A stretch of DNA of 64,000 bases from Gammaproteobacteria bacterium (GCA_021156105.1 JAJNBD010000007.1:52945-116944); one strand, 5' to 3'; positions 21,955 through 64,000 are shown, counted from the first letter of the stretch. The notes: a model not told the origin generated them from the letters alone. Numbers and translations are program-made.

Positions 21955-22629
21955 TTACCAATCGATACTTGCCAAACCATCTAAACTTGCAGCGTCGCTA
22001 GTCGTATTTCTAAGCGCGCCTTGCGACATTAAATAATTTTCAATTCTCCAATGCCCTCGTTTGCTCGCCCAGTCAAGCGCCGTATTATGGTGGCGTGTTT
22101 CAGTATTTAATGAAGCCCCTTGTTCAACCAGATATTGCACAATATGGTAATGACCTAATACCGAAGCCAATACCAGAGGTGTACAATGGTGCCAATTGCT
22201 ATACCATGCGGTTGGGGCATTAAAAGAGAGCAATTGTAGCAATCCTTGGAGAATCTTAGAATGTGATAAATCAGGTAAGTAGCCTATCTGAGTATCTGGA
22301 TTAACACCTAACTCAATCCCAACGGCAACACCGGCAAAGTCCCCTTCGACCACATATTTTTGCAGTACATGCTCTTTATAACCGTTTTCAGAAAAGTTCT
22401 TGCTATAAAGACTAAGCACTTCAAAAACATATCGGGATTTTTGCTTGAGCAAGCCATCTTGCAGAGAAGCTAAAATCACTTTGATTGCTGCATTTTCCGA
22501 CTGGACTAAACGGATAAAGCTGGCTGACGTGGGTAAATTGCGATAGGCTAATAGCTGCTTGATTAAAGATTGGTTGTCAGCGCTAAGCTTTGCGTTTTCT
22601 AAAGCATCGAAGAAAATTTCTAGTGACAT
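21955..22629 (-). CDS. ankyrin-repeat protein (effector candidate)
   Basis: Two clear C-terminal ANK repeats (TPLVLASVLGHYHIVQYLVEQGASLN; NTALDWASKRGHWRIENYLMSQGA). Confidence 0.65.
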   Translation of the reverse strand: MSLEIFFDALENAKLSADNQSLIKQLLAYRNLPTSASFIRLVQSENAAIKVILASLQDGLLKQKSRYVFEVLSLYSKNFSENGYKEHVLQKYVVEGDFAGVAVGIELGVNPDTQIGYLPDLSHSKILQGLLQLLSFNAPTAWYSNWHHCTPLVLASVLGHYHIVQYLVEQGASLNTETRHHNTALDWASKRGHWRIENYLMSQGALRNTTSDAASLDGLASIDW

Positions 22630-37772: not shown

Positions 37773-39530
37773 ATGGCAAAGCGCTCTTTTCTCCGTAAAA
37801 TTTTTAGTTGGAAAACACCCGCCAAGCTACTGGCGGTTGTCGGTGTTGGCGTGATTACCTTTCTTACAACATTATTCACCAAGCAAGGGCTAGCAGATTT
37901 TTTATCAAGCTATACCGCTTCATTAACTGAGCCAGCAATCCAAGTCATCTCTTGGACCACAGGTGCACTAACCGGCGTTGCTACCTTCTCACGCTTAATC
38001 GACAACAGTTGGATAAAATTAACTTTTTGGGGACAAAAACTTGATAATCAAACAGCAAGTGCTTTTACTGGCAGAATATACTTCCTGGATCTTGCTGAAA
38101 CAAAATTAAAAGGTATTGAAAAAATTGTTAACATTGTTTTCAATCAAACCACGCGCTGCCAACAAGAATTCTATAAATACGCTTTAACAATAGAACAATT
38201 AGAAGAGCTTAGCCAAAAATTAAAAAAATTGAAAAAAGAATTGAATACCATGCCAAAGTTACGTGATGAAATTCTACAATTATTATTAAATAATGAAGCC
38301 GAAGATAAAAAACACCTAGAAAAAAAAAGAAAATTACAAGCCAGGTTAAATCTTTTTATTGCTCAGCACCATAAAGCCAATAAACAACTTAATAAGCTTC
38401 AAAGTAAAATTATAAAAATCATCACTCCTCAGATAAACAGAAAACAAAAATACTTAGCATCTCGTACCGCCCCACTTCCTGCACCAATATCATCTTATCA
38501 ACAATCTCAACCACAAATAGGCGCTGGAGTGGTTGACCCTGTTGAGAACGATACTAACCATGAGATTGCTTTACACTTACCCGATCAATCCTTACGGCAA
38601 CCAGATCGACCGTTATCACTACCCAGAGTATTTAATACCTACCAATTTTCTATCGCAGAAATACCCATGGCATTATTAGCAGCTGGGGCTATTACCGCAA
38701 TCGTTGTTACATCAACAGCGATTACAGAAAGAGAGATCAAAAGTTTTTTAATGCATTACGCAAAAGAAATAGCATTACCACGTGCACTAGCTCTCGCCTG
38801 GTCAGCTGCCAGCTTTTTTGGGATTATCGCAACAACAGAAGCAGGCGCATTTTGGCATAAGTTAAGTTATTGGGGACAAATAATTGATAAAACTTTATGG
38901 AGAATTTTTACTGGTGAAAGATATTTCCTTGATAAAGTAGAAAATAAATTAACTGACGTTGAAAATCATATTAGCGTAATTTTTTCTAGAGCGAGTGACT
39001 TCTATGATATGTTCTATTCAGGAGAATTAAGTGATAGCGAGCTCAAAAAACTTAACAGCGACCTGGAAGCGTTAAAAACAACTTTAGAAACCAGACCTAC
39101 AGAACTCAGCGAAGAAATTGTCGCCCTGTTAACTCACAATGACCCTAGAGATCATCATCATTTTAAACGTAAAAAAGCTCAACAAGAAAGATTAAATTTT
39201 TTCATTATTAACGCTAGTACTATTTTTGAAAGCATTAATGAGCTGCAACAGAAAATTCTGGGCGTTTTACAACCAGAGGCAAATGCACTTGATCTTTACA
39301 CGGCAAGAACTCAGTATCTACCATTGCCCCCAGTAGAGCAACAAGCTCAAGAGGATAACGAGGTTGTGCTTAGCGGACAAGAACCAACAGCAACGCCACG
39401 AATACCGCAAAGACGAATAAATACCTATCCTCATCCGGTATTTCAAACCACAACGAGAAGCAATCCAGACCAGTCGACGCCAGCAGAAAGCGCAGATGAA
39501 ACGACTGCGCTACTGCTAAAAACATCTTAA
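37773..39530 (+). CDS. hypothetical membrane-anchored coiled-coil protein with internal tandem duplication (effector candidate)
   Basis: Two homologous ~290-aa halves, each with a TM segment, a W/YWGQxxDx and GxRYFLD motif, a coiled-coil, a [15 protein letters not shown] / [13 protein letters not shown] basic motif and a TxYLPLP tail. Confidence 0.5.
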
Positions 39531-42486: not shown

Positions 42487-43731
42487 TTAAGAAATATAAC
42501 TCATACCTGGCTGCTGATACCTTACTTCATTAGCCACCAATTTTGCAGGCCTCGCCGCTGGCTTTTTAAAAATGCCAACCTGGCTAGCATCTATTGCTCT
42601 TTTTGCTCTTTTGCTAGAGTCTGCATCCATAGGCAATAAAGGGACAGGCCGCTTATATGCTTTAGTAGCTTGTTGTTGAAGCATCTCTCCTGCAATCGTC
42701 TTAATGAAGCTTGCGCTAGACAGAATTGCTTGCTCAAAGAATATTGAGGCTTCGCCTCGGTTAACCTCCACTACTTGAAAACCATGCCAAAGTAGCATTG
42801 CTTTAATAAAAGAGACCTCTGGCGTTGGCAAATAGGTATAATTTTCTAAAAATTCAACCATCTCCTTGGCTTCGCTAAGCGTAACTTTTGCAAGCTTCCT
42901 TTGAAAGCAAGTTAATAAGTTAATGAAATGGGGTAACCGCAACACATCCTCGAGTTGCTGTGCCCGCAAAGCTAATATTTGGCACAAGCGAGTACACAAT
43001 ACTTGGCTCCATAGCCTTTGCTGCACATCAAATAATAAAGTTTTTGCCCGCTCACACGCTTGAGAGAAATTGTGAGGGAAAATAGCGGGGCCTGTAAAAT
43101 AAAATACATTTAGCTTACAAAAGGTTCGTTCATGCCTATCCTCAGTAACGGATAAAGCATGCTCTGACTGCGCTTGAATAATTGACCAAACTTTAGAAGA
43201 TAAAATAATTTTTTTCTGCTGATCCAAAATGATTAAAGCCGAGTAAATGTGTGGTCTTAGCCGACAGTCTATGTCATCAACCATCGGCATCCTCCCATCA
43301 TCTATAAGCATAGCGCCACATTCTTGAAGCAGTAAAATATTCAATAGTGGTTGATGAATTTTGTAAGGCAAAACCAAAATGCTTTTAACTAACTCGAATA
43401 TTAAACCAGCAGAAATTTGCGGTGCGTCTTTTGCTTTATTCTCTAAAACTTGCAGCACCGCTGGTAACTGACTAGAAAAATTAAAATCAAGAAAATTTAT
43501 CAAAGCACCATATGCCTCATCCACACCTCGCGCGGCGTAATAAAGGCATTGCGCTTGGAGGATTTGGATTTGCGCTGCATTCAGCTCAGATGCCAGAAGA
43601 ACCTTCTTATCCTTTTTTGCTTGCTCTAATTTCAATGCAGCAATAAGTTCAAGCAAAGCTGCTTGATTTCTTTTGTCATCCCAAGGACCTTCAAGGCAAT
43701 GAAAAAAATTTGCTATCTTCTCTTTTAACAT
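42487..43731 (-). CDS. hypothetical helical protein (effector candidate)
   Basis: 414 aa, no signal peptide, no known motif. Basic C-terminus. Confidence 0.4.
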   Translation of the reverse strand: MLKEKIANFFHCLEGPWDDKRNQAALLELIAALKLEQAKKDKKVLLASELNAAQIQILQAQCLYYAARGVDEAYGALINFLDFNFSSQLPAVLQVLENKAKDAPQISAGLIFELVKSILVLPYKIHQPLLNILLLQECGAMLIDDGRMPMVDDIDCRLRPHIYSALIILDQQKKIILSSKVWSIIQAQSEHALSVTEDRHERTFCKLNVFYFTGPAIFPHNFSQACERAKTLLFDVQQRLWSQVLCTRLCQILALRAQQLEDVLRLPHFINLLTCFQRKLAKVTLSEAKEMVEFLENYTYLPTPEVSFIKAMLLWHGFQVVEVNRGEASIFFEQAILSSASFIKTIAGEMLQQQATKAYKRPVPLLPMDADSSKRAKRAIDASQVGIFKKPAARPAKLVANEVRYQQPGMSYIS

Positions 43732-45000: not shown

Positions 45001-47163
45001 TTAACCAAGACCAGGACGAGAACGGGCACTACCCGGCAACGTTGATCGCGTACTAGTATCAGCAGGCATTGGAATTGCCGCGGCTGCTCTTTGCGCCAAA
45101 AGCCCATTACCACGTTGCATCAGCTGAGCAACACCAGAGGTAGGTTGCTGGCACGCTTCAAAAACAAGCGTTTCGTTATACTTTAGCTCTGGCAACCGTT
45201 CAGGTTGACCTTGGCAATTAATGGTAATTTTTTCCCGACAAAATGGCGAGCCAAAGCCCTTTCGAGAAAACTGCATTTTCATAATAGCTCGCTCTTTAGA
45301 TAAAGAAATTTCCTCTGGATCAAATTTAATAAGCGATTCTTCAGAGTCTGAGCGTGCTGAAAAATTTTGTGTGAAATATAAAGTTAAACTATGACATGAA
45401 TAATCTACTGCAAAAATATGAGTTAAATTTATTTTTAATTTATCTGCCGTAAAAGCTTGGTAGTATTTAGCAATACCCATTAAACCTAATTGGAAGAACG
45501 TAGTTAAATCAAGTTTAAAACGGCTCCTTTGCTCGGACGTCGTTAAAGGTTCTTCAATTTGAGTTAACAACCAAGCCCCCAGCCCTGCCATATTAACTAT
45601 ATCTGAATAAAGCTTAACCAACGGCCCCAAGTTTCTCGGAAAAACGTTCCTGCTTACAACTTCATCAATCGCCATTTCAAGTGCATTATCACGAGACATC
45701 GCAATCCTTTCTTCAAAACTCATACTACAAGCTAGCGGTGTAGATGCAATGTTTGTTAATAAATCTATTAAACGAGTATTTTCTTGAAGCGCGGCTTTCG
45801 TCACCAAACCAGTAAAAGTATATTCTGGGGAAGTAAAAAAATCTTGAGAAACTTGAGTGCTCAATTGAAAAAATCGTTTGAATTTCTCGCACTCCCTAGG
45901 GTCTTTTAATACGCTAATATATGCCTCTTGCAACTTATCTAAAATGGTCGGATCGTATTGAAGGAATTTCTCCACCACCTCAGCCATACTAAATTCTCGT
46001 AGGCCTGTTAAAAAATACCTTAAAAATGTATTTTTTTCTATTAAATTAGAAATCGCAACGGTCTCAAAGTGTTGTAATGAAAAATAATTCTTAGCAAATT
46101 TTTGTAATTCGTCATCATAAAAATTTCCTTTATCTATTTCCTGAATCTTTTCAGACAAGAATTTATAAGCGTTTTCGTCCTTTAAGCCAGCCAATTTTTC
46201 AAGCTCTTCTGCAGAAATAAAATGCCTCAAATAAACTGTATCATCAATATTTTTTTGACCAGGCTTTAAATGTTGAAACTCTGTAAATACCCGCTTCATT
46301 AACCAGAAAGAAGCTTTATTAGGAAACTGCGCCAATCTCAAACGATAAAAAAACTGTAATTTTTGTAAACATTCTTTCGAATCAGAAAAGCGCGCAAAAT
46401 AAGTAATTAACTCTGCCCTAACCTCTTCAAAATCCTTTTGTATCTTACCAAAATCTTCCTGCTTAAGATCATACCTGCTTTTTTTCCCCACAATAAAACA
46501 CTGCGCACTCGCAAAACCTTTGCCAAGCACCGAGCATAATTTGTTTAAACTGCCACAAATTTTTGATAGGGCATTTGAATCAATTTCGACATTATGGAAT
46601 TGCAGATACTGGTTAATAGCGGCAGCCAAGTCAGGGGTACTTTCTTTGACTTGATAATAAAGCTTGGCCAATATTTCGCTTTCATCCTCTGTTAAACACA
46701 TGCATGGTGTCAATAAGCGCTGCAGAAAATCTGGATATGCCAAAATAGCCGCTTGATAATTATTCTCTAAGCGTTGCAAATCTAAAAGAAGATGCGAAAT
46801 AATAGAAGATTGGTTTTTTCCTTGTAAAGCAGTTTTTATTTTCGTCAACAAATCGATTAGAAGATAAAAACCATAATGCTTTATCTGTCTCTCAGTCTTT
46901 GCCTCTTGTGCCTTGGCATTCTCACCATTTCTATACCAAGTTTCATCTACCAAAAAACTTCCGGAAGAAATATTTTTTAACTCAGGACGAGCTTCTAATA
47001 ACTTGCTAATTTTGGCAAATTCATTATTTTTTAAAGCGCTAATCGCGTCTTTAAAATCAGTAGGAAATTTATTAGAGAAAGCTAAATAATATTCGGTATT
47101 GGCATGATAATATAATGCAGCCTTCGCAAATGATTCTATCAACGTAGGATCAGAAAAAGGCAT
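45001..47163 (-). CDS. large hypothetical helical protein (effector candidate)
   Basis: 720 aa, no signal peptide. Ala/Pro/Arg-rich disordered C-terminal 40 aa. Confidence 0.45.
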   Translation of the reverse strand: MPFSDPTLIESFAKAALYYHANTEYYLAFSNKFPTDFKDAISALKNNEFAKISKLLEARPELKNISSGSFLVDETWYRNGENAKAQEAKTERQIKHYGFYLLIDLLTKIKTALQGKNQSSIISHLLLDLQRLENNYQAAILAYPDFLQRLLTPCMCLTEDESEILAKLYYQVKESTPDLAAAINQYLQFHNVEIDSNALSKICGSLNKLCSVLGKGFASAQCFIVGKKSRYDLKQEDFGKIQKDFEEVRAELITYFARFSDSKECLQKLQFFYRLRLAQFPNKASFWLMKRVFTEFQHLKPGQKNIDDTVYLRHFISAEELEKLAGLKDENAYKFLSEKIQEIDKGNFYDDELQKFAKNYFSLQHFETVAISNLIEKNTFLRYFLTGLREFSMAEVVEKFLQYDPTILDKLQEAYISVLKDPRECEKFKRFFQLSTQVSQDFFTSPEYTFTGLVTKAALQENTRLIDLLTNIASTPLACSMSFEERIAMSRDNALEMAIDEVVSRNVFPRNLGPLVKLYSDIVNMAGLGAWLLTQIEEPLTTSEQRSRFKLDLTTFFQLGLMGIAKYYQAFTADKLKINLTHIFAVDYSCHSLTLYFTQNFSARSDSEESLIKFDPEEISLSKERAIMKMQFSRKGFGSPFCREKITINCQGQPERLPELKYNETLVFEACQQPTSGVAQLMQRGNGLLAQRAAAAIPMPADTSTRSTLPGSARSRPGLG

Positions 47164-47323: not shown

Positions 47324-48844
47324 TTATTTTGCTAGGTGGTAAATCTGAACCTGATCCCCTCGCCTATTAATAAAAACCTTCATTGGTTGATGGCTGCTTA
47401 AAAAGTTTTTTACATTGTCACTAAGTAGATCATCTTTATTAATTCTTAATGCAACCCAATCATAATCTTCAGCTTTAGAAATATCTCTTAATTCGCCATC
47501 TGTAATATTCGCTTGACGCATCTCATCGGCATATTCGTCGCTAGCATAAAAACTGAGCTGGTTACTGGTAGAAAATAAAGTTTGATTTGGCTGCATGTGC
47601 TGATATAGCCAACGCCCACCATTAGAAATATAAGCTTTTGAAACACCAAAATGGCACAAGCCGCTTATTGCCATTCCAAGCAACCATAGCAAAATTATTG
47701 GCCAAAATATTCGTGCCATTTTATGCTGTTGCTGCCAAGCTTGATAAATATTTTCTAGCGCAAAAGGTACCCAGCTCATCCAAAGCAACACCATAAAAAT
47801 CGGATAACGCGCCACGATAAAATACTGCTCTGCAACAAATAAAGCAAGCATGATTAAGTTTACAAAAATCGTCCAATTTAATAAGGTCACTTGTCCATCG
47901 GTATTTTTAATGAGTTTTTGCTGCTGACCAAAGCAAGCTAAAAATAAATATAAAGGTTTAAAAGCAGTAATAATGCCCATAATTAAAACAGCTAATAATC
48001 CGCCATAAAACAAAGTTGGCGCACTATCTTTAGAAAGGTAATTTAATACCGTTGCTTTAATCGTTTGAATATCCGTTTGCATTTTATGCCATGTTGCAGG
48101 CAAAGTTTGGGTTAACTGACTAACTAATTCATATAAACGACTATTTCCTTGCTCTGGAGAATGGTGAATAATGTGGAAAGTAATCATGCCTACCAGTCCA
48201 AGCCATAAACAAAGATTTACTTTAAGATAGCACTTTATTCGCTGACGCCAAAAAACACCTGGCTGAATAAGTAAAACCATTGGAGCTGTTGCTAAAAAGA
48301 CAAATCCCTCCACGCGGAAGAGACTTGCGATAATCATGAACAGTCCCCAAAATAACGCATATTTATAATTAGGCTGTTTTAAATAATTTATTAAAAAAGA
48401 AAAAGCATAAAGCGCAAACGCCCAATAAGCAAAATCACGCGTCACGTAATCACGCATACCATTAAGTGTGGGAAAAATTAAAATTACCAATGCCGACCAG
48501 AGCAGTATCCGCTGCTGAGCACCTAAGATCTTTAATAAACGAATAAAGCCCAGCACGAGCAAAACCTGAAAGATAATATTTAAAAGATGAAAAGCATATA
48601 CCAATTTAATGCTTATTACTTTTGCGACCCAAGCGGCCAGAATAGAAAAGAAAGGCCAGTTATAAGCAACAAATGCAGCCTTTACGCCATGCTGCAAATA
48701 AGCTTGGGCTGTTTTAATATAAACCATGCCGTCCGGATTAATTGGATCATTTGATAAAAGCGCGCTTAAACTAAAAAGCAAACTAAAAATCGCTGCAATC
48801 GTTAGCAGCTTTGGATAGGATAAATTTTGAAAAAAGTTTTTCAT
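47324..48844 (-). CDS. GT-C-fold membrane glycosyltransferase (ArnT/PMT-like)
   Basis: About 11 TM helices. First periplasmic loop with a D/E-rich motif. About 100-aa soluble C-terminal domain. Confidence 0.5.
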   Translation of the reverse strand: MKNFFQNLSYPKLLTIAAIFSLLFSLSALLSNDPINPDGMVYIKTAQAYLQHGVKAAFVAYNWPFFSILAAWVAKVISIKLVYAFHLLNIIFQVLLVLGFIRLLKILGAQQRILLWSALVILIFPTLNGMRDYVTRDFAYWAFALYAFSFLINYLKQPNYKYALFWGLFMIIASLFRVEGFVFLATAPMVLLIQPGVFWRQRIKCYLKVNLCLWLGLVGMITFHIIHHSPEQGNSRLYELVSQLTQTLPATWHKMQTDIQTIKATVLNYLSKDSAPTLFYGGLLAVLIMGIITAFKPLYLFLACFGQQQKLIKNTDGQVTLLNWTIFVNLIMLALFVAEQYFIVARYPIFMVLLWMSWVPFALENIYQAWQQQHKMARIFWPIILLWLLGMAISGLCHFGVSKAYISNGGRWLYQHMQPNQTLFSTSNQLSFYASDEYADEMRQANITDGELRDISKAEDYDWVALRINKDDLLSDNVKNFLSSHQPMKVFINRRGDQVQIYHLAK

Positions 48845-52194: not shown

Positions 52195-53361
52195 ATGTCA
52201 TATTTTACAGAACTCTTTGCGTTGGCGAGCATTGCTCACGAGCGCATTACTGCTGAAAAACAAAACCAGCAACCACTTAAAAGCGTTTCACCTGAAGTTA
52301 TCATGAGGACGCTGCATTCATTTAGCTGCGCTATCACAGCCCCTATGCTTGTTGCGACAGCCTTAACTTGTATTATTAATTTGCAGTACTTAAAAAATGG
52401 TATTGGTAAAGAAGGCTTGGAGAAAACGAAAAATCGCTTTGCTAAACTCTATTATATCTTTACAGATGGTTTAGAAAGCAATGTTAAAAGTAGCCTCTCA
52501 AGAAATGGCATTAACATCATACTAAGCCAAACCGCCCGCGAGGAAGAGCTTTCTTCTACCATGATTAAAGAAAAACAACTCGGCGAAAAAATGCTACCCG
52601 CTAAAGGACTTATGCTTCAAACAGGTTTGGCATCTTTTGCCGGTATTACTAGCGCTCTTGTAACTTCACCTTTTACAGCAAATAATGTCTTCCAAAAAAT
52701 GAATCCTGCGTTTGGTAAATTAAAGTTTATCGAGCAAATACAGGCTTCAAAATCAGCATTCTGGGTACGAGCTCTTGATAGCCAGCTTAATGCCATCGCT
52801 TTTATGACGTTAGCCCCTTATCTAAAAAGCCTTTTACAGCAGCACTGTTTTTTATCTGACTTCACAGCAGATACGGCGGGTTCTGCTTTAGCAGGCGGCA
52901 TTGCAGGATTATTAACCACCCCAACATATAACCTTGCACGCGGCGTAATGTCTCAAACTAAGGCAATAAGAACGGTAGAAGATAAGGTTATTTTTGAGAT
53001 GAACAGTACTTATAAAATATTAAAAGACGAATATCTACGAGGAAAGAGAAAATTTTTTAGTGGTGCTGTGGCCAACGTTTGTAAAGGTAGCCTAGCTTTG
53101 CCTTTAATCATTTTGGCCGATAAAGGCTTAGATTTTGTTATCTTTAAGCACTTATTTCCCATGATGGAAGCAAATCAAACGAAGCAACCGCTGCTTGAAG
53201 TGACACCAGAAGATACGATGCGTTCTGAAACAAAAGAAAAAACTGAAAAATCATCTCAGCTTCTGGGTCAGATTAGTGGCTTATTCTCAGTTAAACCATT
53301 ATCAACCCAAGAAGCTGATTATCTGCAACATACTTTGTATACAACACATTTTGATTTCTAA
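52195..53361 (+). CDS. hypothetical membrane protein, weakly mitochondrial-carrier-like
   Basis: Repeated G-x-x-A-G-x-x-A...P-x-x-x-x-x-R/K...Q patterns (AGGIAGLLTTPTYNLARGVMSQ). Degenerate. Confidence 0.3.
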   Translation: MSYFTELFALASIAHERITAEKQNQQPLKSVSPEVIMRTLHSFSCAITAPMLVATALTCIINLQYLKNGIGKEGLEKTKNRFAKLYYIFTDGLESNVKSSLSRNGINIILSQTAREEELSSTMIKEKQLGEKMLPAKGLMLQTGLASFAGITSALVTSPFTANNVFQKMNPAFGKLKFIEQIQASKSAFWVRALDSQLNAIAFMTLAPYLKSLLQQHCFLSDFTADTAGSALAGGIAGLLTTPTYNLARGVMSQTKAIRTVEDKVIFEMNSTYKILKDEYLRGKRKFFSGAVANVCKGSLALPLIILADKGLDFVIFKHLFPMMEANQTKQPLLEVTPEDTMRSETKEKTEKSSQLLGQISGLFSVKPLSTQEADYLQHTLYTTHFDF

Positions 53362-54216: not shown

Positions 54217-55962
54217 ATGCGCACTTCAAACTTTTTTCTTGCAACTTTACGTGAAACACCTAGCGATGCTGACACTATCAGCCAACAGCTTATGCTGCGT
54301 GCCGGCTTAATCCGCAAACTTGCTTCTGGATTATATACCTGGCTACCCTTAGGCTTCCGTGTGCTGAAAAAAGTTGAACAAATCGTGCGGGAAGAGATGA
54401 ATGCCGCAGGCGCACAAGAGGTACTAATGCCCGCTGTACAACCAGCAGAATTATGGCAAGAATCTGGTCGTTGGGATCAATATGGTGCAGAATTATTACG
54501 CATTATTGATCGCCATGATCGCGCTTTTTGTTTTGGTCCAACGCATGAAGAAATTATTACTGATTTAGCACGCGGTGAGTTATCCAGCTACAAACAACTG
54601 CCTATCACTTTTTATCAAATTCAAACTAAATTCCGTGATGAGATACGTCCACGCTTTGGCGTCATGCGTGCGCGCGAATTCACCATGAAAGATGCTTATT
54701 CTTTTAATCTTGACCAAGATTCATTAGCCAAAACCTATCAAACTATGTATGACGCCTATAACAAAATTTTCAAGCGTCTTGGTTTGAAGTTTCGTGCTGT
54801 TGAAGCTGATACGGGCAGTATTGGTGGCAGTCGCTCTCATGAGTTTCAAGTATTAGCTCAATCCGGTGAAGATTTAATTTTTTATTCCAATGGTAGCGAT
54901 TATGCTGCTAACGTAGAACTTGCAACCACTATACCCTCCGCTAAACAAACACCTAGCGGCAAAGCTTGTGAAAAAATTGCAACACCTGAGCAAAAAACTA
55001 TTGCAGAAGTTAGTGAATTTTTAAAAGTATCGCCTGAGCGTACCGTTAAATGCGTGTTAGTGAAAGGCATGAAGGAACCTGTCATTGCCTTAGTGTTACG
55101 TGGTGATCATGAATTAAATGAAGTAAAAGCTACCAAGCTTGCTGAAGTTGTTAACCCTCTTACCATGGCAGACGCTAGTGATATTAGCAAAGCCTGTGGC
55201 TCAGAAGCCGGTTTTATTGGCCCGATTAATTCAAAAATTCCTTTCTTTGTCGATGCAGATGCAGCCAACTTAGCTGACTTTGTCTGCGGCGCAAATGAAA
55301 CAGGCTTCCATCTTATTAACGCTAATTGGCAAAACCTATCTGCCGATCAAATTAAGGATCTACGCAAAGTAGTGGTTGGCGATAAAAGCCCTGATGGCCA
55401 TGGCACACTTGAATCTGCACGAGGCATTGAAGTTGGCCATATTTTCCAGCTTGGCACTAAGTATTCTGCTGCGTTAAAAATGACTGTATTAAATGAAAAT
55501 GGTAAAGCCGTAACACCTCTGATGGGTTGTTATGGCATTGGTGTATCGCGTGTAATCGCAGCAGCTATCGAACAAAATCATGATGACAAAGGTATTATCT
55601 GGCCAAGCAGCATGGCGCCTTTCCAAGTGGCTTTAATCGGCATCAATATGCATCGATCCGAAGCCGTACAACTTAGAACGCAAGCTATTTATGAAACATT
55701 AACTGCTGCTGGTTTTGAAGTCCTTTGGGACGACCGCAATGAACGTCCAGGTGTGATGTTCGCCGACATGGAGCTTATTGGAATTCCACATCGTATTGTT
55801 GTCAGCGAAAAATTGCTTGCTGACAATTATGTCGAATATAAAAACCGCGCTACTGGCGAACAAGAAACCACTTCTTTTGAAGAAGTTCTGAAAAAATTAA
55901 AAACCCAAGGAAGAGAACATAGCAATGATGCTAACAAATCCAAAACAGTCGCTGCAAATTGA
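54217..55962 (+). CDS. proS: proline--tRNA ligase (bacterial type with editing insertion)
   Basis: Class II motifs. 581 aa with an INS editing domain. Typical N-terminus [15 protein letters not shown]. Confidence 0.95.
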
Positions 55963-57949
55963 TGCTTTCACTAGCAAAGAATGGTTAGAAACGAATGAAA
56001 CTGGCAGTTATGCTTCAAGTAGCTTAGTAGAATGCCACACACGTAAGTATCATGGCTTACTGGTGGCTAAACTACAAGCGCCTTATGGCAAATTTGTTTT
56101 GCTTTCAAAATTTGACGAGCAAGTATTGATTAACGACAGCTATATTCCTTTAAGCGTTAGTCAGTATTTAAATGCTTTAGATGCTCGCGGCTTTACAAAT
56201 TTTAACTGCTTTGATCTAGCAGCGAATCCTTGTTTCCGCTATGTTTGTAATGGATTAGAAATAACCAAAGAGTTACTTTTCTTAAATAGCAAAAACACTT
56301 TGCTAATCAAATATCGCATTCAACAACCAAATACAAACGCTAAACTGCTTTTGCGTCCGCTGCTAGCCTATCGTTCTTACCACGCACTCGCCAAAGCAAA
56401 TACAAATATTTGCAGCACAGCAACACTTTTAGAAAATGGCGTAACGTTTTCTCCCTACGAGGAAATGCCTAAGCTACGCCTATATGCCAACGGCCCCTTC
56501 AGTTTTAATGCTCAGCCCTACTGGTATTATGATTTTGCTTACCTTGAAGAAAAAGCGCGTGGTTATGATTACACGGAAGATTTATTTTCGCCAGGAAGTA
56601 TTGAGCTTAGCTTTGGTGAACAACAAGAAATTATTTTAGCTTGCTCCATTGAAGACGATCTTGAAACTGATTTAGCAAAACTATGGCACGATGAAATCGC
56701 GCGCCGGCAAGCTTTTGCCAAACAAGCTACGGCAAAAGAAGCGTCTTTGTGGCAACAGATTAAGCATCATCTTGGTTTCCGTGATCGCACCGCTAACCTT
56801 TTAGCCATCTTAAAACAACAGGCTTCACCTCAACTATTTGTTAATCCTAATAGCAACAATGCCGCTATCGTCGCAGGCTTCCACTGGTTCACAGAATGGG
56901 GCCGAGACACTATGATATCGCTACCTGGACTAACACTTTATTCAGGTTTAGAAAAAGTCTGCCTACAAATTCTTAGCTATTTTGCTAGCCATGAATATCA
57001 AGGCATTATCCCAAACCGTATCGCACCATTAGCAACTGACTCAGATGAACTCGATGCTGTTGATGCAAGCCTATGGTTTTGCTGGGCAGTGCAACAGTAC
57101 TACAGCAAAACAAAAGATTTAACCGGTATTCAAAAAAATCTTTGGCAAACCTTAAAAAACATTGTGTATTACTATCGCAAAGGAACGCTATTTAACATTA
57201 AACAAGCGGCAAATGGTTTAATTTATGCTGGCAGTCCAGAAATTAAACTTACCTGGATGGATGTTAAAATTAATAACCTTGCTTTAACGCCACGCAATGG
57301 TGCACCAGTAGAAGTCAACGCCTTATGGTATAACGCGCTTTGCTTTATTAATCAGTTAGCTGAAGCATTGCAAGATCCCATTGCCAAAGAACTTGCGCCA
57401 CTTATTCCCCAAGTGAAAAAAAGTTTTGTAGAAGTATTTTGGAATGCTCAATCTGACTGCCTGTATGATTTTGTGAATGAACATGAATCAAACGCACAAA
57501 TTCGTCCCAACCAAATTTTTGCGGTTTCTCTGCCTTATTCCCCGCTAGAGCTTAAGATGGCCCAAGCTGTGACAAATACCGTGCGTCAGCACTTGCTAAC
57601 CCCCTATGGTTTACGCACACTATCACCGCAAGACCCAGCTTACCATGCTGCTTATGAAGGCGACCAAACACAGCGCGATACAGCCTATCATAATGGCACT
57701 GCTTGGCCATGGCTGCTTGCTGCTTTTGGAGAAGCCTTATTAAAAACCCAAGGCTTGCTTGCTCGGCAAAGAGCCCGTAAAATTCTACAACCTTGCTTAC
57801 AAGCACTGTGGCAACACGTAACGGCACAAGCAGGTTTGGCTTGTGTTTCTGAAATTTTTGATGGTTCTGCGCCTTACAATGCACGCGGATGTATACAGCA
57901 GGCGTGGAGCGTAGGTGAACTCATTAGATTAATACAAATATTGCAATGA
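55925..57949 (+). CDS. glycogen-debranching-enzyme-like (amylo-alpha-1,6-glucosidase, GDE_N+GDE_C)
   Basis: N-terminal [28 protein letters not shown] (GDE_N). C-terminal (alpha/alpha)6 barrel motifs. Overlaps the proS end. Confidence 0.7.
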
Positions 57950-59139
57950 AAATTTTAATGTATGGCTGGGAATTTCCACCCTTGATCAGCGGAGGCTTAG
58001 GCGTTGCCTGCTATGGCATCGTGCAAAGCTTGCTAGCGGCAGGAGCAGAAGTTGAATTAGCCTTGCCTACGATTAGTGACCACCTTTTCACAAACGAGCA
58101 CCTCCACTATTTAAATGTGCTAGATGCAGACGTAGCTGGAGGACCAACACCACAGCCATTGTTACAACCTTATTTAAATGCTAACCAATATCTGTCGTTA
58201 AAAGAAAAACAGGTGCATGCAGCGCTTTATGGAAAGGATCTTTGGGAAGAAGTTCATCGCTATGCTGAAACTGCAGGAAAATTAGCACTGAATACACCTC
58301 ACGATATTATTCACGCACATGATTGGTTAACAATTTTAGCAGGTATGAAAGCTAAACAAATTAGCAATAAACCACTGGTATTTCATGTCCATGCTTTAGA
58401 AGTCGACCGCTGCCCACAGCATATTTATCAAGCGGTATTTGATATTGAAAAACTAGGCTTAGAAGCAGCAGATAGGATTATTGCCGTCAGCCAATACACT
58501 AAAAATATTATTATCGAAAAATACGGTATTGCCGCTGAAAAGATTTCCGTGGTCTACAATGGTCTTTTGACAACAGCAAAGAAATTACTAACCCCAAAAG
58601 CACAAAAGGATTATTTTACGGTGTTATTTTTAGGACGGCTTACTGAGCAAAAAGGCCCCTATTATTTTATTAAAGCGGCTGAAAAAGTTCTCTCTGTTCG
58701 TCAAGACGTTGAATTTGTCCTTGCTGGTGATGGAGATCAGCTGCCTGCGCTAATGCAGGAAACCGCACGTTTAGATATTTCTCAGCATATTCATTTCACC
58801 GGTTTTTTAGCTCCGCATGATGTTGGAAAAATTTATCAACTCAGCGATATCTATGTCATGCCCAGCGTTTCTGAACCTTTTGGCATCTCTTGCTTAGAAG
58901 CAGCTTCTTATCAATTACCAGTCATTATCTCTAAACAATCTGGCGTTTCTGAAGTACTAAGCCATGCATTAAAAGTAGACTACTGGGATACTGATAAACT
59001 TGCAGCATGCATTTTAGCTTTGTTGGAATATCCAGCGCTAAAAAAAGAAATGCTTATGCACTCTCATAAACAGCTCGCTAAACTCACATGGGATGAAGCT
59101 GCCAAAAATATTATTTCTGTTTATAACTCGCTTGCCTGA
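57946..59139 (+). CDS. GT4 glycosyltransferase, glycogen(alpha-glucan) synthase-like
   Basis: N-terminus [25 protein letters not shown]-terminal E-x7-E region. ATGA overlap with the upstream gene. Confidence 0.65.
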   Translation: MKILMYGWEFPPLISGGLGVACYGIVQSLLAAGAEVELALPTISDHLFTNEHLHYLNVLDADVAGGPTPQPLLQPYLNANQYLSLKEKQVHAALYGKDLWEEVHRYAETAGKLALNTPHDIIHAHDWLTILAGMKAKQISNKPLVFHVHALEVDRCPQHIYQAVFDIEKLGLEAADRIIAVSQYTKNIIIEKYGIAAEKISVVYNGLLTTAKKLLTPKAQKDYFTVLFLGRLTEQKGPYYFIKAAEKVLSVRQDVEFVLAGDGDQLPALMQETARLDISQHIHFTGFLAPHDVGKIYQLSDIYVMPSVSEPFGISCLEAASYQLPVIISKQSGVSEVLSHALKVDYWDTDKLAACILALLEYPALKKEMLMHSHKQLAKLTWDEAAKNIISVYNSLA

Positions 59140-59148
59140 GGAACTATC

Positions 59149-60330
59149 ATGCCATCTGTGTGTTTTTATTTTCAAGTACACCAGCCATTACGTTTAAGAC
59201 CCTATACTTTTTTTGATATTGGTCACCAAAGCCATTATGAAGACGATGCGCTTAATCAAGAAATTTTGTTAAAAGTCGCTAATAAGTGTTATTTACCCAC
59301 AAATGCACTCATTTTAAAACTTATTCAGCAAACCCAAGGCAGATTTAAAGTTGCTTATTCTATTAGCGGTGTAACTATTGAGCAATTTAAAAAATATAGT
59401 CCAGAAACACTAGACTCTTTCAAGCGCCTTGCGGATACTGGCTGCGTTGAAATGCTCAATGAAACGTATTACCACAGTTTAAGTTTTTTATTTTCACCAA
59501 AAGAATTTTTAGCTCAAGTACAGTTACATCGAGAATTAATTCAACAAGAGTTTGGCCAAACACCAACAACATTTCGCAACACTGAATTAATTTACAATAA
59601 TGACTTAGCGAAATTCGTTGAATCCTTAGGTTATCGCACTATCTTAGCTGAAGGCGCAGAAAAAATTCTTAACGGCCGTAGTCCAAACTTCGTTTATCAA
59701 GCACAAGGATGTAAACAATTAAAATTATTATTACGTAATTATCCCCTGTCAGATGATATCGCTTTCCGCTTTTCTAATATTGACTGGGAAGAACACCCAT
59801 TAACTGCAGAAAAGTTTTCGCATTGGGTTCACCAAACTGCGGGCAATGGTGAAGTGGTTAATCTTTTCATGGATTATGAAACTTTTGGTGAGCATCAATG
59901 GGAAGATAAAGGCATTTTTCAATTCCTTGCTGCTTTACCAAATAAAATTTTATCTCACGATGATTTTGATTTTTGCACTCCCCAGGAAGCAACCGCAAGA
60001 TATCCTTCTCATGGAATACTCGACGTACCTAACTTTTGCTCATGGGCAGATATCGATAGGGACCTCACCGCTTGGCGAGGTAATGAATTACAAGAGAGCG
60101 CTTTAAAGAACATCTATGAACTAGAAGCAGCGGTACACGCCCAGCAAGACGAAGCTTTGCTAAAAAAATGGCGGTCATTATTGACCTCCGACCACTTCTA
60201 TTATATGTGCACAAAATGGTGCGCAGATGGGGATGTTCATAAATACTTTAGCCATTATGACAACCCCTACGCTGCTTACATCAACTTTCAAAATGCCGCA
60301 AAAGATTTGCGTTTACGCTGCAGCCAATAG
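59149..60330 (+). CDS. glycoside hydrolase family 57 (branching-enzyme/alpha-amylase-like)
   Basis: CFYFQVHQP N-terminal motif and ETYYHS, typical of GH57. Confidence 0.7.
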   Translation: MPSVCFYFQVHQPLRLRPYTFFDIGHQSHYEDDALNQEILLKVANKCYLPTNALILKLIQQTQGRFKVAYSISGVTIEQFKKYSPETLDSFKRLADTGCVEMLNETYYHSLSFLFSPKEFLAQVQLHRELIQQEFGQTPTTFRNTELIYNNDLAKFVESLGYRTILAEGAEKILNGRSPNFVYQAQGCKQLKLLLRNYPLSDDIAFRFSNIDWEEHPLTAEKFSHWVHQTAGNGEVVNLFMDYETFGEHQWEDKGIFQFLAALPNKILSHDDFDFCTPQEATARYPSHGILDVPNFCSWADIDRDLTAWRGNELQESALKNIYELEAAVHAQQDEALLKKWRSLLTSDHFYYMCTKWCADGDVHKYFSHYDNPYAAYINFQNAAKDLRLRCSQ

Positions 60331-61767
60331 TTTTACTGTTTCTGCCCGAAGACGCACAGCAGTTAACAAAGTTGCATAACTCCAGGACAAATCCTGGGCG
60401 CTTATTTGCTTGCCGGACGCACGATCAATTTGCTCCGACATATGCAATGCACTGCCATCTTTATACGTTACGCTGCAAGCTTTTATCACTTGCAAAATAT
60501 CATCACCCTGAGTAACGAGTGTTTCAATTAATGCCTTAAAGCATGGTGAAGCTTTGCTAAGCTTATCTCCAATCGCAATATCAATTGCAGGCGCTACCTG
60601 TTGCAAAAATTGTTTTACCAAAAAGCTAACCGAAATACTATTTCCTTCGAGTAGTTGTTGAGCAAGACCATAATAGAAAGCCGCCAACATATTTGTACAC
60701 AAAAACCAGGAGTTGCCATAGATTGAATGGTTGCCATCGTAAACATCAGAACAGTATCTACCTACCAGAGAGCCACCAATACCAAGCGCTTTATTTCGAG
60801 TATTAATTTGATAAAGCCCTTCAAATGCATAGCGGGCATAATAGGCTGTGCTTATAACCTCTTCCGAGGTTAGAGCAAAATCATCATTCGCTTGCTTAAT
60901 TTGGCCATACAGTAAAGCAATAAGCACTGAAGTATTAATTCCACCGCCGCGCTGGTCTTGTGCCGCTAATGTTTCAGAAAAGTAACCCAGGCTATCATTC
61001 CAATGCATATTTAAAGCATTACCAATATGCTGCGCTTGTGTTTGATAATAGCTAGTCGCACCTGTATCACCTAACTGTGTGGCCAAAGCCGCGCCTTCCA
61101 ACAAAGCTCGTCGCTGTACAATTTGCACAGAGAAATGCAGACCAAATAATTCTTCCCAAGGTCCAATCGTATTTGCTTGCCAATTAGCCGCCGTATATTC
61201 TAAATTTGCTTTTAATATACTAGCAAAACTTTGAGGGTTATAAATGTTATCGATAACAAATTGTTTATTACCTTCTTGTAAAAAAATATTGGCAATATGG
61301 GTTAATGTCAGCGCTTGGTAAGCTGCACCATCATTTTGTGGTCTTGACCAAACTCCCGTCCAAAGCGTACCGTCTACATTAAACTTCGGTTCGCCTAAAA
61401 TATCAATGCTATTTAATTCAGGCTGCGATTGAACTTTTTTAACAAAATTCAAATAACAGAGTAAAATTTCTTTAAACTTATTTTTCTCTTGCGGATCTGT
61501 AGCAGTTTTATATAATACCGCAATTTCATTTATGACAATTGCACCATCTCTTACCCAGTAAAAAAAATAATCTTGGCTAAAGGTATTTCCCGGAAGCGAT
61601 GGCGAAGCAATTACGGCGCCTGGCATTGCTTCAATCGTAGCGCCAGTCGTTACTTTTGTTAACGCATGACTAGGTGTTGCAATATTATTTAGTAAATTAT
61701 TTTTAATGGCGTTAATATCTTCTGGCGTAAAAGGACAATTCTTTATAGTCATAGCATTAAACCCCAT
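60313..61767 (-). CDS. glycoside hydrolase family 15 (glucoamylase/glucodextranase-like), cytoplasmic
   Basis: (alpha/alpha)6 GH15 motifs (WVRDGA, GPWEE, WFLCT). No signal peptide. TAATG coupling with the upstream gene. Confidence 0.75.
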   Translation of the reverse strand: MGFNAMTIKNCPFTPEDINAIKNNLLNNIATPSHALTKVTTGATIEAMPGAVIASPSLPGNTFSQDYFFYWVRDGAIVINEIAVLYKTATDPQEKNKFKEILLCYLNFVKKVQSQPELNSIDILGEPKFNVDGTLWTGVWSRPQNDGAAYQALTLTHIANIFLQEGNKQFVIDNIYNPQSFASILKANLEYTAANWQANTIGPWEELFGLHFSVQIVQRRALLEGAALATQLGDTGATSYYQTQAQHIGNALNMHWNDSLGYFSETLAAQDQRGGGINTSVLIALLYGQIKQANDDFALTSEEVISTAYYARYAFEGLYQINTRNKALGIGGSLVGRYCSDVYDGNHSIYGNSWFLCTNMLAAFYYGLAQQLLEGNSISVSFLVKQFLQQVAPAIDIAIGDKLSKASPCFKALIETLVTQGDDILQVIKACSVTYKDGSALHMSEQIDRASGKQISAQDLSWSYATLLTAVRLRAETVKLLAAA

Positions 61768-62891
61768 TAAGAAATTTTTAAAACATTTTTGAAATTGTCA
61801 TTCGCTTGAAACAATAAGGTTTCATATTGCTCCATTGGAAACCTAACAATCAAAGTCTGCATCAACGCTGGCCACTTAGCTAAAAAATCGCCTAAATCAT
61901 CGATTGCTTTTTGATAATCCGCTTTAGCAGCATTCACCGTACCCACAAGCGCTTGGTTTTTTAGCACGAGATTACGCATAATGTCACCCACTGGCTCTGA
62001 CGCAACCACATCTGCTCGTGAAACACCTGTAAAAGCAAAGATACCATTAATACCTAAAACATCTACCATTTCAAAAGAGATTTTTGCGCCACCGGTTGCT
62101 TCAAAAACATAATCAACATTGCCGAGCATTGCGGCAAATTCAGGTATTGTTTTATCTTGGGCAGATACATAATGCGTGCCGATTGTTTTTGCAATATTGG
62201 CATGAGGAGAGTTTTCAGCTTCTAAAGAATAAACAAAAGTATTGAAACCCGCGTTAACAAAAACCATTGCGCCCAGTAAACCAACAGGCCCTGCGCCTAA
62301 GATAGCGGCACGATTATAATTTGCCAGCTTGCCAATATTGGCGCCTTGCCCTTGCGCAGAGTTTGTCCAAGGAAAGCGACTAGCGATAGGACATACCTGA
62401 CTCATGGCTTTTTCTGCAATTGTTAATGGCTCGGTAAGCACAGCAATCGGTAGTAATGCTTGTGGCGCAGGCAACATATAGCATTCTTCATCCACCACAA
62501 ATTCTGTCATAAAGCCATGCAGCCCTTTAATACCTCGCTCTTTGTAATCGCCGGTATAACAAAAATCTTGACGGCCTGATCGGCAAGCGATGCAATCGCT
62601 ATGATCACATGGCCGGCGAACCATCGTTACCACTAAATCACCAGGCTTAAATTTTGTAACGCCCGCCCCTACTTCAATAACTTGCCCCAGAGATTCATGG
62701 CCAAGAACAAGATAATCCGACCCCTCAGGCGGCGTTCCATAAGCAAAGCTACAAATTTCACGATCGGTACCGCAAATACCTACTTCAATAATTTTTAACT
62801 TCACTTGATTTGGTGAAGTAATTTGTGGTTCTGGATGGTTATCAATCAGCGTAACCCGTCGCTCTTTAGGAAAAACTGCTATCGCTTTCAT
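61767..62891 (-). CDS. zinc-dependent MDR-family dehydrogenase, glucose-1-dehydrogenase-like
   Basis: GICGTDREI and GHESLGQV zinc-binding motifs. Rossmann GxGxxG (GAGPVG). Confidence 0.7.
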   Translation of the reverse strand: MKAIAVFPKERRVTLIDNHPEPQITSPNQVKLKIIEVGICGTDREICSFAYGTPPEGSDYLVLGHESLGQVIEVGAGVTKFKPGDLVVTMVRRPCDHSDCIACRSGRQDFCYTGDYKERGIKGLHGFMTEFVVDEECYMLPAPQALLPIAVLTEPLTIAEKAMSQVCPIASRFPWTNSAQGQGANIGKLANYNRAAILGAGPVGLLGAMVFVNAGFNTFVYSLEAENSPHANIAKTIGTHYVSAQDKTIPEFAAMLGNVDYVFEATGGAKISFEMVDVLGINGIFAFTGVSRADVVASEPVGDIMRNLVLKNQALVGTVNAAKADYQKAIDDLGDFLAKWPALMQTLIVRFPMEQYETLLFQANDNFKNVLKIS

Positions 62892-62928
62892 AACATATCC
62901 TTAAAATAATTATTTATCAATTTCCAAG

Positions 62929-63921
62929 CTATTCTTCGCGATGTACAATCGTATTTGGGTCAAGACCATTAAAATAGTATTGCCCAACACGCCCTCGATA
63001 CCGCTCATCTTCTGAAACTTGAGAATGTCCATAAGCATGCCCACCAAAACCATGACGAATCATGCTAATGGCTTTCGCCCAATTTTTCTTTTCATCGCGG
63101 CTATTAATAAGTTGCATAACAGCCATTGCAATAACCGGTGTAGGAACTTCCATATGCATCGCATCATCCACTAACCAGTTGACTTCACCTGTGTCATCAA
63201 CATAACTATCAATTTTTTCTAAGCCATCATTTTGTCGGTAAGCCGCGGCCATTAATTCAATTAGCCAACCTCGGATAACTGAACCACGCGTATAAACATC
63301 CAGTGTTGCTTGAATATTTAATTTTAATGGACATGCTTCTAATAAAGCCATGCCCTCACCAATTGCTTCGAGCATACCATATTCAATACCATTATGAACA
63401 AGTTTTACAAAATGGCCCGCACCAGGAGGCCCCGCATGTACATAACCACCACTTACAGATAAAGATGTTAAGATCGGTTCGATAATTGCAGACTCTTCCG
63501 GCGTTCCCCCCAGCATAAAACAAGCACCTGACTCGGCACCTGAGATGCCACCACTCGTTCCCAAATCCACAAAATGGATGCCTTTTTCTAAATATTTTTT
63601 ATGCCGACGAATAGAATCACCCCAATAAGAGTTTCCACCATCAACAATGACGTCGCCATCTTCTAAAATTTCACTTAATTTATCGGCACAGTCATCAACA
63701 GCGTGACCTGCAGGAATATAAATGAAAATCACTCGGGGACGCGCAAGATTCGCAACAAAGCCTTGGTAGTCTTGAACTTGAATTAAACCTTTGCCTAACA
63801 AGTCTGCACTTGCTGGATGAAAATCATATCCCGCAACTTTCATTCCTTTCGCTAACGCTTGTGCTGCAAGATTTCCACCCATGCGTCCTAAACCAATTAC
63901 ACCAAATTGTAGCTGTGACAT
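62929..63921 (-). CDS. 6-phosphogluconate dehydrogenase, short decarboxylating (GndA/YqeC-like) form
   Basis: GVIGLGRMGGNLA Rossmann motif. IVDGGNS and GxGHFVKLVHNGIEYG catalytic region. Start set to ATG with AAGGAG SD, since the track start is further upstream. Confidence 0.75.
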   Translation of the reverse strand: MSQLQFGVIGLGRMGGNLAAQALAKGMKVAGYDFHPASADLLGKGLIQVQDYQGFVANLARPRVIFIYIPAGHAVDDCADKLSEILEDGDVIVDGGNSYWGDSIRRHKKYLEKGIHFVDLGTSGGISGAESGACFMLGGTPEESAIIEPILTSLSVSGGYVHAGPPGAGHFVKLVHNGIEYGMLEAIGEGMALLEACPLKLNIQATLDVYTRGSVIRGWLIELMAAAYRQNDGLEKIDSYVDDTGEVNWLVDDAMHMEVPTPVIAMAVMQLINSRDEKKNWAKAISMIRHGFGGHAYGHSQVSEDERYRGRVGQYYFNGLDPNTIVHREE

Positions 63922-64000
63922 ATTTTCATTCTCCTTAAATAATTTAATAGCTATAGCAAGGTTCTGGCAATCCTTGAACATCATCAATATAAACGGCAAA

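Follow-up and report, generated by a model that had tools for sequence, protein, structure and literature searches.

A conserved operon encoding a predicted glucoamylase, an archaeal-type glucose dehydrogenase, a lactonase and a divergent 6-phosphogluconate dehydrogenase suggests a variant gluconate shunt in a gammaproteobacterium

Glucokinase is commonly presumed to deal with the free glucose that arises inside bacteria, such as that released by glucoamylases, debranching enzymes and compatible-solute hydrolases. Gluconate shunts are found in methanotrophic bacteria and in fission yeast too. In the methanotroph Methylotuvimicrobium alcaliphilum, glycogen-derived glucose is converted to gluconate and then to 6-phosphogluconate (6PG), as shown genetically for the glucose dehydrogenase (GDH) and the gluconate kinase GntK (Rozova et al., 2021, PMC8062543). 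Here, we describe an operon at one end of a 64,000-nt stretch of a metagenome-assembled genome (MAG) named "Gammaproteobacteria bacterium" (GCA_021156105.1, JAJNBD010000007.1:52945-116944; hereafter the window), which encodes a predicted sugar lactonase, a 6-phosphogluconate dehydrogenase (6PGDH)-like enzyme, a zinc-dependent medium-chain dehydrogenase/reductase (MDR) resembling archaeal GDHs, and a predicted glucoamylase of glycoside hydrolase family 15 (GH15). The likeness to the methanotroph shunt lies in the supply of glucose from a storage glucan, in an NAD(P)-dependent GDH leading to gluconate and toward 6PG, followed by the pentose phosphate or Entner-Doudoroff pathway, and in the hosts, which are Gammaproteobacteria not necessarily growing on sugars. 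However, the methanotroph GDH is a short-chain dehydrogenase/reductase (SDR), whereas the GDH of the window is an archaeal-type zinc MDR. GntK was identified and genetically tested in the methanotroph, whereas no kinase was found here in the window, its flanks or related clusters, and the window locus joins a glucoamylase, a lactonase and a divergent 6PGDH with the GDH in one operon.

Two other systems invite comparison. In the Legionella GamA system, a eukaryote-like GH15 enzyme is encoded together with glucose-oxidation genes in an amoeba-associated type of gammaproteobacterium, and a YwtG-like sugar porter is shared with clusters related to the one studied here. However, GamA is secreted, whereas the GH15 protein of the window has no signal peptide, and Legionella uses a phosphorylating route with a kinase in the operon that leads to the Entner-Doudoroff pathway, whereas the window has a GDH and an SMP30-type lactonase in place of Zwf and Pgl, no kinase, and a 6PGDH-like end enzyme. 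Our literature search found no operon joining GDH and GH15 in Legionella-like bacteria, and no description of a bacterial glucose dehydrogenase with the Glu_dehyd_C domain. The GDHs of Sulfolobus solfataricus (2cd9), Haloferax mediterranei (2b5v) and Thermoplasma (3wic) share their fold, the Glu_dehyd_C domain and the zinc ligands with the window MDR, and match it with E-values about 30 orders of magnitude better than those of other MDRs. In the archaeal branched and semi-phosphorylative Entner-Doudoroff pathways, however, the product is passed to gluconate dehydratase and 2-keto-3-deoxy-(6-phospho)gluconate aldolase, whereas the MDR of the window has a 6PGDH-like partner. The window MDR also differs from the archaeal enzymes in belonging to a bacterial clade that, to our knowledge, is uncharacterized and whose closest relatives in genomes share about 50-57% identity with it.

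The best explanation of the operon is that it disposes of free intracellular glucose derived from storage alpha-glucan. We propose, with middling confidence, a variant gluconate shunt that is fed by glycogen, enters the pentose phosphate pathway and depends on an unlinked kinase. The cytoplasmic GH15 enzyme and the neighboring debranching enzyme would free beta-D-glucose, the zinc MDR would oxidize it with NAD(P)+ to D-glucono-1,5-lactone, and the SMP30-type lactonase would convert the lactone to D-gluconate. A kinase encoded elsewhere would then form 6PG, from which the 6PGDH-like enzyme would produce ribulose 5-phosphate by oxidative decarboxylation. In this scheme we infer all of the substrates, including 6PG for the last enzyme, as well as the existence of the kinase. 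Beta-glucose is the form used as GDH substrate (PMC8062543). The predicted oxidative front end, from storage glucan through beta-glucose and gluconolactone to gluconate, is well supported because homology, retained catalytic residues and conserved synteny all point to it; the passage of carbon through 6PG is unproven. A first-pass annotation of the window had proposed a glucose-to-pentose route. Its part from glucan through glucose to gluconate agrees with the enzyme families and the conserved synteny, whereas the kinase that would link gluconate to 6PG was not found.

The operon lies on the minus strand. As that annotation had described, three genes are tightly packed, with TAATG coupling and a 37-bp gap, and are convergent with a glucan operon; reading of the open reading frames (ORFs) and junctions confirmed each of these points. 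The gene coding for the GH15 protein (484 aa) occupies 60313-61767 and that for the zinc MDR of the archaeal glucose 1-dehydrogenase type (374 aa) 61767-62891, both assigned from ORF and Pfam, and the stop codon of the MDR and the start codon of GH15 share the TAATG overlap. The 37-nt spacer (62892-62928) carries a TAAGGA ribosome-binding site before the ATG of the MDR. The short-chain 6PGDH-like enzyme (330 aa), a member of the tail-bearing subfamily described below, is encoded at 62929-63921 and starts at an ATG with an AAGGAG ribosome-binding site. The first-pass annotation had also expected a lactonase or a gluconate kinase just past position 64000. The public metagenome record of the same contig (locus L001) extends beyond this position and shows the expected lactonase gene, whose end is 22 nt upstream of the 6PGDH gene: the spacer between its stop codon and the 6PGDH ATG, which contains the AAGGAG, is at 63922-63943 (L001 8949-8970), and the 3' end of the lactonase gene, comprising the last 18 codons (FAVYIDDVQGLPEPCYSY) and the stop codon, is at 63944-64000 on the minus strand. 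These genes therefore constitute a four-gene operon in the order lactonase-6PGDH-MDR (GDH)-GH15. NCBI names the proteins of this MAG gluconolactonase (MCD6047843.1), hypothetical (MCD6047842.1), gcd (MCD6047841.1) and hypothetical (MCD6047840), under the locus tags K0S08_1487-1490. The convergent plus-strand cluster, assigned from ORFs and family models, codes for an archaeal-type debranching enzyme with GDE_N and GDE_C domains (55925-57949), a glycogen-synthase-like glycosyltransferase (GT) of the GT4/GT5 type (57946-59139) and a GH57 protein (59149-60330), and the 3' ends of the GH57 and GH15 genes overlap by 18 nt (60313-60330). These three glucan genes are the likely source of the glucose.

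The GH15 protein matches PF00723 (6e-58) at profile positions 17-426 of 427, that is, the catalytic domain only, and its N-terminus (MGFNAMTIKNCPFTPEDINAIKNN...) has no hydrophobic signal sequence, which agrees with the cytoplasmic GH15 enzyme of the first-pass annotation. Among solved structures, a 438-aa glucan 1,4-alpha-glucosidase (27xj, 8e-54) and fungal glucoamylases (1e-41) match it best, and matches range to 1e-33. The catalytic motifs WEE (GPWEELFG) and SEQ (MSEQIDRASG) align with segments of the solved enzymes, and we take them, by analogy with Aspergillus glucoamylase, to hold the general acid and the general base, respectively. GH15 enzymes are inverting and produce beta-glucose, and the family also includes trehalases and glucodextranases. 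The gene product is a putative glucoamylase, predicted to release glucose from alpha-1,4-glucan.

The MDR likewise carries the GICGTDRE motif that had been noted as a resemblance to archaeal glucose 1-dehydrogenases, and both the domain matches and the best solved relatives support this assignment. It matches PF16912 Glu_dehyd_C with 133.5 bits (cutoff 34.9; 9e-39), PF08240 ADH_N with 68.7 bits (cutoff 23.5), and also PF00107. The catalytic-zinc ligands C40, H65, E66 and E154 and the structural-zinc cysteines C95, C100, C103 and C111 align with the corresponding positions of 2cd9 and 2b5w. Among solved structures, the GDHs of Sulfolobus, Haloferax and Thermoplasma match best (1e-44 to 1e-35), followed by alcohol dehydrogenases at 1e-15. 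In the window enzyme, Ile and Leu occupy the positions aligned with D154 and H297 of the S. solfataricus GDH (SsGDH), which we take to lie near the C6-OH of glucose. The lactonase (290 aa, L001 8076-8948) belongs to the SMP30/gluconolactonase (SGL) family (PF08450, 5e-84). Its best solved relatives are the Caulobacter xylonolactonase XylC (7plb, 8e-51) and SMP30/regucalcin (1e-43), whose substrates are unphosphorylated sugar lactones. The segments LGEcPvW, tNGiawSPD and lPDGltVDa align with XylC 7plb and regucalcin, and Glu, Asn and Asp are presumably the metal ligands, as in the six-bladed SGL propellers generally. The protein is an SGL-type sugar lactonase with predicted activity on gluconolactone, in a family of broad specificity.

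The arrangement of these genes is conserved. A sister species from the same metagenome (L094), whose MDR is 92% identical, has the same operon, facing the same glucan genes and the gene for prolyl-tRNA synthetase (ProRS) in convergent orientation, and no Tc toxin gene upstream. The four-gene grouping is not due to chance, because the same order and convergence recur in L094. Rearranged versions were found in six related Gammaproteobacteria (L030, L087, L093, L028, L049 and a P0129 contig). In L030, the GH57, GT and GDE genes are divergent from a series GH15-6PGDH-SDR-ABM-lactonase-MDR-sugar porter-aldose epimerase. L028 has the order 6PGDH-SDR-RpiB-lactonase-MDR-porter-epimerase and L049 the order 6PGDH-lactonase-MDR-porter-epimerase. 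L087 and the P0129 contig carry MDR-GH15 beside GT and GH57, with 6PGDH and lactonase genes adjacent, and L093 has a major facilitator superfamily (MFS) transporter gene in the order MFS-MDR-GH15-GT. Glucan genes were co-located with GH15/MDR in L030, L087, L093, L094 and the P0129 contig. The most constant pair was MDR followed directly by GH15 (five genomes), and MDR, 6PGDH and lactonase genes were clustered in at least nine genomes. In addition, the related clusters contain a glucose/xylose-type, YwtG-like sugar porter and an aldose 1-epimerase. This epimerase of about 297 aa was considered as a glucose-6-phosphate 1-epimerase, an identity that would favor a phosphorylated route, but its solved relatives are galactose-mutarotase-like proteins and not YeaD, and they lend this idea no support.

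The MDR family extends to other phyla. We sampled 80 MDR loci (L004-L083), including Verrucomicrobiota, Acidobacteriota, Planctomycetota, Binatia and Myxococcota. A GH63/MGH1-like glycosidase of about 880 aa follows the MDR in 50 of these 80 loci, a PF04199 "cyclase" lies beside it in 28, and several others have a GDE-like enzyme. The steady partners of this MDR family release free glucose, and therefore glucose is supported as its substrate. These results suggest that glucose from glucosides or compatible solutes is oxidized, and not phosphorylated, in many soil phyla. In a Binatia MAG (L004 6108-11107), zwf and glk were located directly upstream of the MDR gene; this was the only locus with a sugar kinase gene beside the MDR.

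The 6PGDH-like enzyme differs more from its characterized relatives. The first-pass annotation had called it a short 6PGDH, and the family assignment stands: the protein scored 349.6 bits with NF007161 (cutoff 271) and 305.8 bits with TIGR00872 (cutoff 297.2, barely exceeded), although both models stop at residue 297, before its tail. Its best solved relatives (4e-63 to 1e-53) are the short tetrameric enzymes of Gluconobacter oxydans (6xeq/10gw), Gluconacetobacter diazotrophicus (6vpb), Mycobacterium tuberculosis (Gnd2, 8ihe/9ijb) and Geobacter (4e21), with which it shares the two domains, the catalytic Lys, His, Asn and Glu, and the RX2FGXH motif. Residues were mapped on an alignment to the G. 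oxydans enzyme (Go6PGDH), with the numbering verified at nine residues. The catalytic residues K173, H176, N177, E180 and Y181 are kept, as is RX2FGXH (R289-H-G-F-G-G-H295). In the structure of the Gluconobacter 6PGDH with 6PG, Arg322 and His328 of this motif touch the phosphate and the gamma-hydroxyl (bioRxiv 10.64898/2026.01.21.700892), and Arg304 makes a further phosphate contact (bioRxiv 10.64898/2026.01.21.700892; for the role of this residue also PMC8900737). R289 and H295 of the window enzyme correspond to Arg322 and His328. However, this enzyme is no ordinary short 6PGDH: the subfamily to which it belongs has lost the phosphate-binding Arg304, which is replaced by Leu or Cys, has Asn for the "lock" Arg281 and a changed 277-283 loop, carries about 20-35 extra C-terminal residues, and is linked to GDH genes and never to zwf or gntK.

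To describe this subfamily, the window 6PGDH was aligned with its 120 best database homologs, which come from many phyla and are 58-100% identical (121 sequences in total). The tail of the window enzyme comprises 35 extra residues (296-330) beyond the GGHA end of the known enzymes, and within it E306, R307 and G310 are invariant and R311 is near-invariant (ERxxGR). The main phosphate binders R289, H295 and Y181 are invariant in the tail-bearing subfamily. Other changes in the window enzyme are Thr244 for Go Ser277 and Asn248 for Arg281, and position 297, right after His295, is among those that separate the two classes. An AlphaFold2 monomer model built on a 22-sequence alignment had a predicted local distance difference test score below 50 over residues 242-330.

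The gene neighborhoods separate the two classes as well. The 80 loci from a metagenome scan with the 6PGDH, which are a sample and do not represent the closest relatives, carry mostly ordinary short 6PGDHs with 38-47% identity to the window enzyme and served as a control set. Together, all loci contained 95 short 6PGDH genes, comprising 74 tail-less genes, 20 complete tail-bearing genes and one cut tail-bearing gene, and a partner was counted when it lay within 6 kb of the 6PGDH gene. At position 271, which aligns with Arg304, all 74 tail-less enzymes had Arg, and all 20 complete tail-bearing enzymes had Leu or Cys. The zwf gene was a partner of 46/74 tail-less genes and gntK of 3/74 (49/74 for either), whereas neither accompanied any of the 20 complete tail-bearing genes. 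Conversely, a GDH-type MDR gene was present near 15/20 tail-bearing genes vs 0/74 tail-less genes, and a hydrolase of the SGL or PF04199 type near 14/20 tail-bearing genes. The few tail-bearing genes without a partner had a contig flank of less than 1.5 kb. Loci that had been found through the 6PGDH, and were thus unbiased toward the MDR, were all MDR-linked (L087, L089, L095-97, L098-99, L100, L101 and L102). These include Elusimicrobia (L095-97) with the order GDE_C-cyclase-6PGDH-MDR-MGH-like glycoside hydrolase, Anaeromyxobacteraceae (L098-99) with MDR-6PGDH-cyclase, and L101 with MDR-cyclase-6PGDH-bacterial GH15. Judged from their sequences and surroundings, the tail-bearing 6PGDH-like enzymes are a distinct and widespread subfamily.

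Other proteins recur beside the tail-bearing genes. The PF04199 "cyclase" protein (about 215 aa) fills the slot of the SGL lactonase in L095-L099, L101, L102 and L043. Its best solved match is kynurenine formamidase (2e-37), and it also adjoins gntK-gntU beside ordinary 6PGDHs in L127, L134 and L151; it is a candidate for a non-homologous gluconolactonase. An SDR of about 248 aa begins 3 nt past the stop codon of the tail-bearing 6PGDH in L028 (7873-8622), L030 (7478-8221) and L089 (7007-7750). Its best NCBIfam matches, to aldose, glucose or butanediol dehydrogenase types, are under the cutoff, and its substrate may be what the 6PGDH produces, or it may carry out a second oxidation of sugar. 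A fusion of radical-SAM and methyltransferase domains (about 830-850 aa) is located just upstream of the module of MDR and 6PGDH genes in two phyla unrelated to each other (L043 7374-9863 and L095 1474-4026).

A shunt with an unlinked kinase is favored because the main phosphate binders are kept, the tail adds conserved arginines, and an rpiB gene lies inside one related cluster (L028). The substrate of RpiB is ribulose 5-phosphate. Several results nevertheless weigh against this shunt, and the kinase is the first of them. The tblastn queries were the E. coli proteins GntK, Glk, Edd, Eda, Zwf, GntU, AraB (FGGY), KdgK and RbsK (PfkB) and Pgl. None of them had a match in the 64-kb window or the related gammaproteobacterial clusters, and the 10-kb flanks on both sides contained no GntK, Glk, FGGY or PfkB homolog either, so that the gluconate kinase anticipated nearby is absent from all of them. 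No sugar kinase gene was found within 10 kb of any tail-bearing 6PGDH gene in about 20 clusters examined. By comparison, the analogous operon of L. pneumophila includes glk (PMC4158876), and ordinary short 6PGDHs adjoin gntK-gntU in L127, L134 and L151. The second group of results concerns the 6PG site. Arg304 of Go6PGDH (R287 of the sheep enzyme by our own alignment) is Leu271 in the window 6PGDH, and among the 121 aligned sequences this position is Leu in 106, Cys in 13, Met in 2 and Arg in none. The class-separating positions include 244, 247, 248 and 250 in the 6PG-contact loop (244-250), 271, and 174 beside the catalytic lysine. All four solved short 6PGDHs have the Arg, no solved structure covers the tail or represents the subfamily, and our searches found no published characterization of it. 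The Pfam tables of the window and of 10 kb on its left listed housekeeping genes, family-less ORFs, an ankyrin protein and phosphoglucomutase, and no sugar kinase. A kinase domain hidden in one of the cluster genes was also considered and rejected, as all four proteins have the length of single-function enzymes and are fully covered by their family models.

The strongest competitor, to which we assign a clearly smaller probability than to the shunt, dispenses with the gluconate kinase. [quoted passage not shown] The 6-phosphate pocket would be remodeled by the missing Arg together with the added C-terminal tail. This possibility is kept alive because the kinase is systematically absent, with four kinase families missing from every cluster, and because the loss of the Arg is perfectly correlated with linkage to partner enzymes whose predicted product is unphosphorylated gluconate. 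The clean split of the 95 short 6PGDH genes into those with Arg, often beside zwf or gntK, and those with Leu or Cys, mostly beside an MDR or hydrolase gene, the MDR linkage of all loci picked by 6PGDH, and the gathering of subfamily-distinguishing positions at 6PG-contact elements also speak for it. However, R289 (Go R322), H295 (Go H328) and Y181 are invariant, R307 and R311 of the tail could simply stand in for the lost Arg, and the protein clears the NCBIfam 6PGDH cutoffs. The RpiB of L028 fits this possibility poorly, and D-ribulose would still need a kinase, of which none is clustered. Moreover, our literature search gave no gluconate-to-ribulose enzyme, and we know of no enzyme with this direct activity.

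An improbable alternative to the kinase-dependent shunt is that these neighbors do not form a linear route. GDH and lactonase would remove or detoxify glucose as gluconate, to be exported or used in an Entner-Doudoroff-type route, and the 6PGDH would be a plain pentose phosphate enzyme co-regulated with glucan turnover. In accordance with this, most of the 80 sampled MDR loci from other phyla have no 6PGDH gene within 10 kb, and L093 has neither 6PGDH nor lactonase on the covered part of the contig. The distant relative L089, the sole cluster with an MR_MLE (enolase superfamily) gene, also codes for an Amidohydro_2 protein, consistent with a dehydratase route. However, the MDR and the tail-bearing 6PGDH are inherited together in Gammaproteobacteria, Elusimicrobia, Anaeromyxobacteraceae and others, and their reading frames often overlap or nearly abut. 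Further, tblastn detected no edd, eda or kdgK homolog in the window or the related gammaproteobacterial clusters, and the Pfam gene tables of the window contain no MR_MLE, ILVD_EDD or aldolase family.

It is less likely still that the MDR oxidizes another aldose or a polyol and that the cluster serves a different sugar. The matches of the MDR to NCBIfam equivalog models are all far under their cutoffs, the best solved match of the lactonase is a xylonolactonase, and archaeal GDHs of the same fold are often promiscuous. The constant partners of the MDR argue against a different sugar, as they are glucose-releasing alpha-glucosidases (GH15, and GH63/MGH-like in the 50 sampled loci) and GDE-like enzymes, and the porter of the related clusters is of the glucose/xylose type. 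Finally, a fully phosphorylated route, in which a housekeeping glucokinase would supply glucose 6-phosphate and the MDR and SGL protein would replace Zwf and 6-phosphogluconolactonase, is the least probable of all: the dehydrogenase-lactonase-6PGDH series does mirror Zwf-Pgl-Gnd, zwf-gnd clusters mostly lack glk too, and zwf and glk adjoin an MDR of the same family in L004, but the nearest characterized relatives of the MDR and the lactonase use unphosphorylated sugars, the residues at the presumed C6-OH positions (SsGDH D154/H297) are not basic, the porter of the related clusters is one for free sugars and their epimerase is not YeaD-like, and the loss of the phosphate Arg in the 6PGDH would be left unexplained.

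The four-gene module, with its putative archaeal-type GDH, SMP30 lactonase, cytoplasmic GH15 and previously unrecognized 6PGDH subfamily, recurs across phyla; GCA_016180425.1 and GCA_035762305.1 are further genomes that carry it. The locus and the module shared by these phyla suggest a widespread alternative to glucokinase that is oxidative and would yield two NAD(P)H per glucose. They also define a large 6PGDH-like subfamily, now annotated as ordinary 6PGDH or, in this MAG, as "hypothetical", whose signature and neighborhood differ sharply from those of proven 6PGDHs. If gluconate were indeed decarboxylated directly, this would constitute a new, non-phosphorylated path leading from hexose to pentose.

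Upstream of the lactonase gene, 416 nt of intergenic sequence separate it from a giant Tc-toxin-like gene in divergent orientation (L001 1-7659, on the minus strand of that locus), which codes for more than 2559 aa with SpvB, TcdB_toxin_midN, TEN_YD-shell and RHS repeats. At this position, the sister L094 has unrelated genes (Metallophos, FUSC, PQQ_2 and the gene for histidyl-tRNA synthetase), and the toxin-like gene therefore looks inserted or rearranged. The two species share a conserved stretch of about 130 nt 5' of the lactonase ATG. An inverted repeat at 8020-8060 of both L001 and L094 reads TTGCCAA-N5-TTGGCAA in L094 and TTGTCAG-N6-TTGGCAA in the window genome; it overlaps a weak promoter-like match and may be an operator. 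Promoter and terminator scans gave weak consensus matches alone, in numbers near chance expectation, and an Rfam scan of the window gave no match. On the other side of the glucan genes, the ORF of the debranching enzyme shares 38 nt (55925-55962) with the end of the gene for prolyl-tRNA synthetase, in agreement with the public gene calls, which makes co-transcription of the glucan genes with proS possible. Farther away, an ankyrin-repeat protein is encoded at 21955-22629 (minus strand), and the region 30000-54000 has many large ORFs without a Pfam family, for example 37773-39530, 42487-43731, 45001-47163, 47324-48844 and 52195-53361. The ankyrin protein and the run of family-less ORFs are consistent with a host-associated, Legionellales-like lifestyle.

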